A stretch of DNA of 26,777 nucleotides from a virus (taxonomy: Duplodnaviria > Heunggongvirae > Uroviricota > Caudoviricetes), in the IMG/VR virus record IMGVR_UViG_2778261535_000011, positions 1 through 26,777 of that record; one strand, given 5' to 3'. Every line of letters starts with the position of its first letter. Position 1 is the first letter of the stretch. Both the position numbers and the translations under genes were made by a program. This document shows positions 11,734-12,582 of the stretch, in pieces. Below the pieces are notes generated by a model. That model searched no databases and was not told where the DNA came from. It saw only the letters and a program-made list of their open reading frames with translations.

Positions 11734-12582
11734 ATGAAAAACTTTAAGGTAATTAGTATGTTCGAATCGTTCAAAGAGCTGTTTTTATCTACTGCCAATA
11801 CTGCCGTGCATCGAGCTAAAAACCCTGTGCTTGGTGCTTTTGTTATGTCCTGGTGCGCCTTCAACTGGAAATCACTTCTTTATCTATTTTTTAGCAAATC
11901 AAATATAATAGATAAAATTTCATACATCTCAGATAACAGCACATGGAAAACTGTTATGTTTTATCCATGCTTATCTGTAATTACTATCTGCTGCCTATTA
12001 CCATGGGTAAACAATATCATTAACGTATGGCAAGCAAAGCCTCTTGATAATAATGACTCAATCGAAAATCACCGGAAGGCAAGAAAAATACAACGTGAAA
12101 CACGGCTACAGAGATTGCTGGCTAAAAAAGACATTACTTACGAAAAAGTAAAAACAGGCGCTGAAAAAAACATTCAAGATATGAAAGAGGAAATAATTCT
12201 TTCAAAAGACAGAATGGGACAACTCACATCTGAATTGAAAGAGAGGGAGACAGAACTGCGCGCAGCACAAGCTCGTATTTTAGAATTATCTAAGGTTATT
12301 GATGAAACAACATCTAAACTAGAAAATCTAGAAAAAGCTCACAAACAATTAAAAGACGAATATAAGCCTTATAAAGAAAGTATTCATTTGACAACAAACA
12401 ACTCAATTGCAAATAGACTTGCTGATCCAAAGATAGTACAAATGATTAACGAGTCTGCAAAAAATTTAGGCATTGCTAAAATTAACAACCCAGAAATCAG
12501 TACATTATTGAATAATCCACTAGCAAATATAAATGGCGGTTTAAATCCCGCCAATCAAAGAAAATCAAAATCACAAAAGTAA
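11734..12582 (+). CDS. Moron: AT-rich membrane-anchored coiled-coil protein (about 275-283 aa); candidate superinfection-exclusion or abortive-infection protein
   Basis: Seen: opposite polarity to the flanking terminase and portal genes; strongly AT-rich relative to neighbours; two hydrophobic segments (PVLGAFVMSWCAFNW; MFYPCLSVITICCLLPWVNNII), then a K/E-rich heptad-like region (ELKERETELRAAQARILELSKVIDETTSKLENLEKAHKQLKDEYK) and an Asn-rich tail; five AGA and one AGG among twelve Arg codons. Alternative start at 11758. The ORF-track start at 11476 is rejected because it overlaps the tRNA and terminators. Function is inference. Confidence 0.65.
   Translation: MKNFKVISMFESFKELFLSTANTAVHRAKNPVLGAFVMSWCAFNWKSLLYLFFSKSNIIDKISYISDNSTWKTVMFYPCLSVITICCLLPWVNNIINVWQAKPLDNNDSIENHRKARKIQRETRLQRLLAKKDITYEKVKTGAEKNIQDMKEEIILSKDRMGQLTSELKERETELRAAQARILELSKVIDETTSKLENLEKAHKQLKDEYKPYKESIHLTTNNSIANRLADPKIVQMINESAKNLGIAKINNPEISTLLNNPLANINGGLNPANQRKSKSQK

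Follow-up and report, generated by a model that had tools for sequence, protein, structure and literature searches.

The window analyzed here, a 26,777-nucleotide stretch of viral DNA (Caudoviricetes; IMG/VR virus record IMGVR_UViG_2778261535_000011, positions 1 to 26,777), is assigned by its sequence to an Escherichia coli prophage of the phiV10/epsilon15 group, genus Uetakevirus. The subject of this study is an accessory, or cargo, gene at 11734-12582 on its plus strand, which the initial annotation had described as a moron encoding a two-transmembrane (two-TM) anchor, a coiled coil rich in lysine and glutamate and an asparagine-rich tail, and had put forward as a candidate exclusion or abortive infection (Abi) factor. 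The reading frame is open over 282 codons and encodes 282 amino acids in its long form. More than 140 homologues of the protein were found, and the frame is a genuine gene. The region 11000-12700 matched phiV10, TL-2011b and their relatives at 95-98% identity in the flanks only; it was found in full length in three complete E. coli genomes at >99% identity, in one of which the cargo frame is annotated as WP_142441059.1, a "hypothetical protein."

The cargo gene and its product

The cargo gene is antisense inside the minus-strand packaging and structural operon, between the terminase and portal genes. The slot spans 11006-12585, and one of its flanks is formed by the portal gene (9105-10784, minus strand) and a small gp3-like gene (10799-11005, minus strand). 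The convergent flank is the gene of the terminase large subunit, terL (12586-14061, minus strand), whose stop codon is 3 nucleotides from that of the cargo gene. At the upstream end of the plus-strand island is a tRNA-Arg gene with the anticodon UCU (11433-11509, plus strand), detected by ARAGORN and by the Rfam tRNA model (73 bits) and the only match in an Rfam scan of 10700-12700. The GC content of the cargo gene is 33%, and windows across 11700-12600 have values of 0.30-0.37 vs about 0.52-0.56 in the flanks.

Two terminator-like hairpins on the plus strand stand between the tRNA and the cargo gene, as had been reported. The first (11553-11588) has a 14-bp stem followed by CTTTTT, and the second (11673-11698; stem 11673-11689), which is kept in sister phages, combines the GC stem GCCCGG/CCGGGC with a T8 run. 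Downstream of them, a consensus scan found the best predicted promoter of the region, a sigma-70-type element at 11704-11732 (plus strand) with a –35 hexamer ATGACC (11704-11709), a 17-nucleotide spacer and the –10 hexamer TATAAT (11727-11732), matching 10 of 12 consensus bases. The earlier proposal of a promoter-like element belonging to the gene itself, which had been built on this TATAAT, agrees with the conservation of the footprint: about 60 nucleotides upstream of the start are kept across clades and genomic contexts and even in a distant subfamily, with an xTGACx –35 element, a 17-nucleotide spacer and a TAnAAT or TATACT –10 element recurring in copies from lambdoid prophages and in the subfamily of about 25-30% identity. 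On the minus strand, a weak terminator-like hairpin (12534-12553) is found inside the 3′ end of the cargo frame, 33 nucleotides past the terL stop codon; a terminator is annotated at the corresponding position of phiV10, and the hairpin is not kept in the closest alleles.

The frame is open from 11734, the start proposed initially and also used by RefSeq, but translation very probably begins at the ATG at 11758, 24 nucleotides further downstream, which gives a coding sequence of 11758-12582 (plus strand; 274 amino acids plus stop). This placement rests on three observations. First, the near-universal start among homologues is the residue equivalent to M9 of the long form, which is also where the alignment to PHROG 4780 begins. 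Second, the ATG at 11734 is confined to the clade of the window, which has CATGA where other clades have CAGA. Third, this ATG is located 1 nucleotide past the –10 hexamer and would therefore not be on a transcript from the predicted promoter. For these reasons, it was rejected as the start codon. A Shine-Dalgarno-like AAGG (11746-11749, plus strand) is present 8 nucleotides before the ATG at 11758, and the A-rich leader and AAGG or GAGG are retained in other clades. A longer inverted repeat with 16-nucleotide arms of 94% identity (11710-11725 and 11742-11757) was also considered. It is specific to the window clade and was rejected as a general feature, as other clades lack it.

The encoded protein begins with a membrane module (11758-12030, plus strand), delimited by hydropathy, conservation, charge distribution and an AlphaFold model in which its predicted local distance difference test (pLDDT) values are 85-96. 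It comprises an amphipathic helix (amino acids 2-20), hydrophobic helix 1 (amino acids 23-45, with the motif N36-W37-K38), a short loop helix (amino acids 50-60) and hydrophobic helix 2 (amino acids 63-91, with P70 and P82). A conserved juxtamembrane segment and proximal stalk follow (12031-12237, plus strand; amino acids 92-160), which are near-invariant among 42 homologues and include the motifs KPLDNNDSIEN, TRLQRL and KTGAEKxIQ.MKE. The remainder consists of a variable distal coiled coil (12238-12420, plus strand; amino acids 161-221) and an asparagine-rich, low-confidence tail (12421-12579, plus strand; amino acids 222-274; pLDDT about 50-60), which is replaced by unrelated tails in other alleles.

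The description of a coiled coil rich in lysine and glutamate was supported by composition (15% K, 13% E and 12% L in residues 101-220), by one unbroken heptad register of about 100 residues with 68% hydrophobic a/d positions, and by the AlphaFold model, which shows this region as one long helix with a pLDDT above 95. The structure prediction that had been suggested as a check gave a pLDDT of 74 with a shallow alignment and 85.7 with 77 diverse sequences, and returned a membrane module with a long helix: helices were predicted at residues 2-20, 23-35 and 37-45 (with a kink at N36) and 50-60, and as a single uninterrupted helix at 63-221, in which hydrophobic helix 2 runs into the stalk without a break. 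The C-terminus is asparagine-rich, as noted earlier (21% Asn in the tail), and in view of the model it is probably disordered.

The claim of a two-TM anchor stands in part. Two hydrophobic segments are indeed present within the first 100 residues, but the first, with a best Kyte-Doolittle 19-residue window of 1.19 compared to 2.02 for the second, is marginal as a span. Its simple Hessa sum is +4.5 kcal/mol, and a near-invariant N-W-K is at its center; its hydrophobic moment is low (0.27), unlike that of a surface helix. The family-mean net charge is positive (+1.4) ahead of helix 1, negative (–0.9) within the 19-residue loop and positive again (+1.3/+1.3) in the two segments past helix 2. The most economical reading of these features would be a hairpin with both termini inside, in which the periplasmic loop is very short and a stalk of about 130 residues (about 19 nm) extends into the cytoplasm. 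The alternative to this hairpin would be one span with a periplasmic stalk.

A TM segment joined to a coiled coil resembles an i-spanin, and holin matches, non-significant (E>4), were returned from BFVD. On these grounds, the product could be a lysis protein, either a holin, an antiholin or a spanin-like TM plus coiled-coil component. Such a role is barely credible, as the gene is antisense and outside any lysis cassette, has no o-spanin partner and has no PHROG lysis annotation, and the charge pattern predicts a stalk in the cytoplasm and not in the periplasm. The occurrence of family members in inoviruses, which are non-lytic, and on plasmids further excludes a lysis function. The periplasmic-stalk, spanin-like topology was likewise rejected as less probable on the charge pattern and the gene context.

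A shared operator motif and the predicted expression of the cargo gene

In the cargo promoter, a palindrome, TACCTTAAAGGTA (11716-11728), runs from the spacer into the –10 hexamer. An operator-like palindrome at this promoter had been noticed initially, and the overlap stands, but the element is not private to the gene and appears to be the phage's own immunity operator. In its longer form, TTACCTTAAAGGTAT at 11715-11729, with the core TACC-N5-GGTA at 11716-11728, it takes in the spacer and the beginning of the –10 hexamer. The core palindrome has 9 copies in the window compared to 0.14 expected, a count reached by none of 100 shuffles, and the 15-bp form TTACC-N5-GGTAA with at most 1 mismatch has 11 copies compared to 0.42 expected.

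The other copies are found at predicted control points. A three-operator cluster (19879-19893, about 19905 and 19927-19941) is located between two divergent genes, one for a 194-amino-acid double helix-turn-helix regulator, the putative repressor (19997-20581, plus strand), and the other a 76-amino-acid cro-like gene (19612-19842, minus strand), after which come O- and P-like replication genes. Two pairs, each exactly 62 bp apart, bracket the early promoters, one that of a leftward operon (17534-17548 and 17596-17610) and the other that of a rightward operon (20639-20653 and 20701-20715). A tandem pair (14654-14668 and 14672-14686) is found directly before the probable true start of terS, a copy TTACCTTTCAGGTAA (11096-11110, plus strand) is placed across the –10/+1 region of the probable TTGACA promoter of the tRNA, and a single copy was found by motif search at 19542-19556.

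Because the context of the cluster has the layout of an immunity region, TTACC-N5-GGTAA is most simply read as the operator of the prophage repressor, and perhaps also of its Cro. The motif is kept at the tRNA, cargo and terS positions in phages of the group from Escherichia, Klebsiella and Rahnella, and lambdoid loci lack it, apart from the one carried along as part of the cassette; it is the probable immunity operator of the phage genus. No description of a TTACC-N5-GGTAA operator was found in the searchable literature, including papers on Uetakevirus. In a sister phage, overexpression of the repressor lowers the transcripts of endolysin and holin by more than 99.9% (PMC9782041), in keeping with broad action of the repressor on lytic units.

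The association of the operator with the present cargo was examined in a survey of the slot in 77 sister phages from IMG/VR with TerL at least 98% identical. All 11 loci that carry this cargo have the operator, 42-46 nucleotides ahead of the start, and none of the 63 loci with other cargo have it. The cargo gene would thus be a member of the repressor regulon: with the operator over its promoter, it is predicted to be gated together with the lytic genes and not constitutive, with little or no expression in a stable lysogen and a switch to expression once the phage infects or is induced. For the copies in lambdoid prophages, where the promoter is retained and the cognate repressor is missing, expression would be unregulated. 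Such wiring suggests that timing or dose may matter, the product being harmful if freely made, or useful only during phage development.

These predictions bear on the classical moron, in which the gene would be expressed constitutively from the lysogen and would protect it by superinfection exclusion or abortive infection. Several attributes of a moron in the Hendrix-type definition were confirmed: the gene is found in a variable slot, has a predicted autonomous promoter insulated by upstream terminators, is of atypical base composition and is antisense within an operon, like P22 sieA. Furthermore, the lambdoid copies, with no cognate repressor, would be constitutive. A plus-strand terminator of its own after the stop codon, which is a further attribute of a moron, was not found. 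Constitutive expression from the lysogen is unlikely because a near-consensus immunity operator over the spacer and –10 hexamer predicts repression in this phage. A classical moron role also finds no homology to SieA or SieB, to PADLOC families or to function-annotated PHROG families.

The same operator argues for a lytic-cycle helper, which is the main rival explanation, if a fairly improbable one. The product would be made early after infection or induction and would serve the phage's own development at the membrane, with host takeover, neutralization of a membrane-associated host defense and tethering of phage DNA or proteins to the membrane as possible roles. The operator is on the cargo promoter as it is on the lytic promoters and on that of the co-located tRNA-Arg(UCU), and it is specific to this cargo type. 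The gene also has a long-term, genus-wide association with Uetakevirus, and the conservation of its juxtamembrane segment, predicted to be cytoplasmic, suggests that a partner is conserved as well. The points against such a helper come mainly from the distribution of the family, given below.

The operators also touch two neighboring genes. The probable promoter of the tRNA (11073-11110, plus strand; TTGACA at 11073-11078) was placed by sequence and motif search, and with an operator at –10/+1, this rare-codon tRNA would be supplied only in lytic growth. Between this putative promoter and the tRNA is a conserved GC-rich stretch of about 280 nucleotides (11150-11432), with no Rfam match and a folding z-score of about –2.0 on either strand. 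The minus strand of its phiV10 equivalent is annotated as a 252-nucleotide coding sequence, PhiV10p04, and candidates for the stretch are a long tRNA leader, a small RNA or a small gene. The annotated terS frame (14058-14732, minus strand) has a TTG start at 14732, and the ATG at 14654 (MMPAEPK...) is probably the real start; terS of TL-2011b is annotated shorter, at 594 nucleotides, and matches the window frame from M27. The two tandem operators fall within the annotated 5′ end of this frame.

Exchange of the cassette and of its modules

In the 77 sister phages, the slot after the tRNA holds one of at least six alternative cargo genes, two together, or none. A Phage_gp49_66 protein (PF13876) is encoded at 36 loci and a 139-140-amino-acid protein at 17 loci, and further types encode unrelated proteins of 110, 115 or 99 amino acids. 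The present family occupies about 10 of the 77 loci, including a 310-amino-acid allele of about 25-30% identity, and phiV10 and TL-2011b have other genes in the slot. One allele with an N-domain dN (nonsynonymous divergence) of 0.24 lies between flanks with 99% identical TerL, and whole alleles have therefore been replaced in situ. The gene is horizontally acquired accessory cargo, and whatever the function of any of this cargo, the terL-portal slot of phiV10/epsilon15-like prophages is defined by these data as a cargo exchange point.

Outside the sister phages, the gene is in the terL-portal slot in about 55 of 69 viral contigs with a close family member, and several others are lambdoid prophages that have it within their replication/nin region, in antisense to early genes. 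Directly downstream of these lambdoid copies, on the opposite strand, is a terL fragment (residues about 342-490) with many stops, next to an intact cargo frame. As read from these sequences, the cassette evidently took the 3′ end of terL with it when it moved out of a Uetakevirus, and it appears to have been kept while the hitch-hiker decays; the stop-riddled fragment therefore shows which way the transfer went. A gene for a 304-amino-acid Ion_trans_2 (K+-channel-like) protein comes after the family member, on the same strand, in one lambdoid prophage.

The protein matches PHROG 4780 over its full length (E=3.5e-115; residues 9-278 vs profile positions 1-269 of 275) and PHROGs 13369 and 35327 more weakly, and none of the three has an assigned function. 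The absence of a named family, as initially stated, was upheld: searches of the protein against Pfam, NCBIfam and PADLOC (PADLOC-DB v2) returned coiled-coil noise only, with no Pfam family at threshold. When 77 diverse relatives were included, the PADLOC matches were all weak and limited to LmuB and JetC, which are SMC-like coiled-coil models, and Pfam gave coiled-coil noise, no SLATT domain and one C-terminal GerE helix-turn-helix. The last is a GerE/LuxR helix-turn-helix in a member from a short contig (P0233). A clear homology to a housekeeping or virion protein was looked for and none was found, the only function-annotated PHROGs matched being tape-measure families, weakly and along the coiled coil. 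The remote homology search that had been proposed was also negative. With the family profile, hhalign gave a probability of 4.6% against P22 SieA and 0.2% against SieB, and a sequence profile search of the Protein Data Bank (PDB) gave nothing below E=0.05. Structure comparison with solved and viral predicted structures showed no resemblance beyond generic long helices.

A profile search of 1.84 billion cluster representatives found 1722 relatives at a cutoff of E≤1e-3, of which 299 also passed E≤1e-10. A length of 230-350 amino acids and the same layout are shared by most of them, and the family is recognized by the signature ER-x-KNP-xx-G-x-F-xx-SW-xx-FNW(K/Q)-xxxx-LLFS, followed by the short loop helix and helix 2 with two conserved prolines. 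A scan of a genome collection with the family alignment gave 4 loci, and a second homologue search with a very diverse alignment gave mainly close relatives. By DNA similarity of the N-domain, 62 of 5426 complete E. coli genomes (about 1%) carry the gene. A full-text literature search, including the accession numbers of the family and the PHROG identifier, found nothing on it; its only catalog entries are PHROGs with no assigned function and the label "hypothetical protein."

Distant members occur in many settings. The terL-portal slot is used again in prophages associated with Rahnella and Advenella, and other members adjoin a prophage integrase, lie between serine recombinases in Erwinia or are found in the accessory region of filamentous Vibrio phages (vB_VipaK and the inovirus PE002); the PE002 member adjoins a DUF2726 gene. 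On plasmids, one member (Vibrio aerogenes) directly follows the S subunit gene of a type I restriction-modification system and two DUF262/GmrSD-like genes, one (Leptospira) is a few kilobases from a Shedu gene, and one (Klebsiella) follows a GNAT/DUF1778 toxin-antitoxin pair. Others are beside a ParA gene, beside an Rhs toxin gene, or are singletons among housekeeping genes. Collectively, this is a large family of single-gene cargo cassettes moving among temperate podoviruses, lambdoid prophages, filamentous vibriophages, plasmids and small islands.

This distribution speaks against the lytic-cycle helper in three ways. First, the gene is dispensable, as most sister phages and all but about 1% of E. 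coli genomes are without it. Second, members are found in settings that have no lytic cycle, namely non-mobilizable plasmids, inoviruses, recombinase islands and single genes in chromosomes. Third, the lambdoid-prophage copies are antisense to early genes and have no cognate repressor. The same distribution could fit a membrane-active toxin, an addiction-type element or a general host-fitness factor, all unrelated to phage conflict, as the gene stands alone on many kinds of mobile elements, one copy is beside a toxin-antitoxin pair, and tight repressor wiring in Uetakevirus could reflect toxicity. This is nevertheless a decidedly improbable explanation, since no antitoxin partner gene is conserved next to the family and the apparently unregulated lambdoid-prophage copies persist intact. 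Growth, stress and virulence phenotypes were unchanged in a lysogen of a sister phage (PMC9782041), an observation that says little here because that phage carries different cargo.

Sequence divergence within the family is unevenly distributed along the protein. For codons 1-150, comparison with other alleles gave a dN/dS (nonsynonymous over synonymous divergence) of 0.07-0.08 or no nonsynonymous change at all; the values for TerL are 0.03-0.07. Among 45 distinct alleles from viral contigs, residues 1-150 have a mean pairwise identity of 72% (minimum 51%), and the remainder a mean of 30% (median 24%). By these measures, the membrane module and the first 60 or so residues of the stalk appear to be under strong purifying selection. 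The same alleles fall into 7 N-domain clusters and 12 C-part clusters, which occur in 15 combinations; for example, N1 is paired with C1 or C3, and C1 is paired with N1, N3 or N7. Compared to its nearest relatives, the window allele has an identical N-domain (dS 0.01-0.10) and a diverged C part (dN 0.13, dS 0.22-0.25), which points to recombination at the module boundary. Alleles thus appear to swap the distal stalk and tail through recombination. For the variable part, positive selection was considered and rejected, as its dN/dS is 0.3-0.6, below 1, and dS is raised, pointing to recombination.

A possible conflict function and its relation to known systems

In the lack of a homology lead, the argument for a function rests on architecture, evolution, distribution and regulation. 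The best guess, offered tentatively and at somewhat less than even confidence, is a conflict function at the inner membrane, that is, exclusion of, or an abortive response to, competing phages or other mobile elements. Occurrence as a self-sufficient single gene on tailed and filamentous phages, on plasmids and on islands is a usual trait of genes for conflict or addiction, as is an antisense position in a cargo slot, at times beside restriction, Shedu or toxin-antitoxin genes; such a distribution is not typical of virion, replication or lysis functions. The strong conservation of the membrane module, and the exchangeability of the cytoplasmic part joined to it, suggest that an anchor or effector is combined with a specificity part. 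In the proposed mechanism, the cassette would supply its own sigma-70 promoter, overlapped by the immunity operator, so that the prophage repressor would hold the gene down and the gene would fire upon infection or induction. The conserved membrane module would then act as an anchor or effector at the inner membrane, and the exchangeable distal coiled coil and tail would act as the specificity part. That the family is a previously unrecognized single-gene conflict module, which in Uetakeviruses forms a repressor-gated exclusion or suicide switch active only when the phage is infecting or induced, is a more doubtful proposition.

Several observations weigh against a conflict function. The searches of Pfam, NCBIfam, PADLOC, PHROG and the PDB, the hhalign comparisons and the structure searches revealed no sequence or fold relation to characterized exclusion or defense proteins. 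A factor that protects the lysogen would hardly be expected from a gene that is repressed there. Defense genes were neighbors in about 3 of about 12 contexts inspected, for distant members only, which is anecdotal, and others among these contexts were housekeeping or plain prophage surroundings. PADLOC had no match to the other cargo proteins of the slot, none of which is a known defense gene, and the slot location therefore gives a conflict function no support. In the table rows covered from the DefensePredictor paper, a large study of defense prediction in E. coli, the family motifs and WP numbers were absent. The divergence of the variable part fits relaxed constraint on a coiled coil together with shuffling and is no proof of diversifying selection. 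Finally, with helix 1 marginal as a span, the predicted topology could be wrong.

If a conflict function is true, it would add a widespread and easily testable single-gene system to the known phage exclusion and abortive factors, and an exclusion or abortive factor of this kind would be a phage-borne, single-gene membrane factor with no sequence or fold link to known ones. The natural shuffling of N and C modules provides ready-made material for specificity swaps. Whatever the function of the cargo, the operator TTACC-N5-GGTAA lets accessory genes that are silent in the lysogen be predicted, which matters for reading prophage cargo in pathogenic E. coli, Salmonella and Klebsiella.

The family of the cargo protein is represented by PHROG 4780, an entry with no function, name or description; the module structure, the operator linkage and the distribution across elements found here are not part of it. 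Compared to characterized exclusion proteins, the cargo protein shares with P22 SieA and T4 Imm that they are small, phage-encoded, single-gene products of the inner membrane (as predicted here for the cargo protein) with a promoter of their own, and P22 sieA is antisense at the edge of the structural genes, as is the cargo gene. SieA and Imm differ in that the cargo protein adds a cytoplasmic coiled coil of about 130 residues and a swappable tail and is predicted to expose about 17 residues in the periplasm. T4 Imm and Sp are early exclusion proteins, and the synthesis of Imm early in lytic infection would fit the predicted repressor-gated expression.

Phage proteins with other roles at the membrane offer models for a lytic-cycle helper. 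T4 rII counters Rex, a membrane-associated host defense, and phi29 p16.7, an early protein with a TM segment, a coiled coil and a C-terminal functional domain, is a model for the tethering of phage DNA or proteins to the membrane. Both p16.7 and the i-spanin Rz have an N-terminal membrane anchor followed by a coiled coil, like the cargo protein. Rz differs by its one TM segment, its periplasmic coiled coil, its partner Rz1 and its position in a lysis cassette, whereas the stalk of the cargo protein is predicted to be cytoplasmic. The domain of p16.7 is conserved and binds DNA, whereas the tail of the cargo protein is not conserved, and the likeness is by description only.

A further likeness is to SLATT proteins, to the two-TM effectors of retrons and of the cyclic-oligonucleotide-based antiphage signaling system (CBASS), to RexB and to AbiZ. 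These combine a small conserved membrane module with a variable cytoplasmic part and are borne by mobile elements, like the family described here. The cargo gene differs from the SLATT, CBASS and retron effectors in that it is a solitary gene, accompanied by no cyclase, reverse transcriptase or partner protein. In a two-TM Abi effector, the membrane module may oligomerize or perturb the membrane and the variable part may sense infection, and by analogy the same is conceivable for the conserved and the exchangeable parts of the cargo protein.

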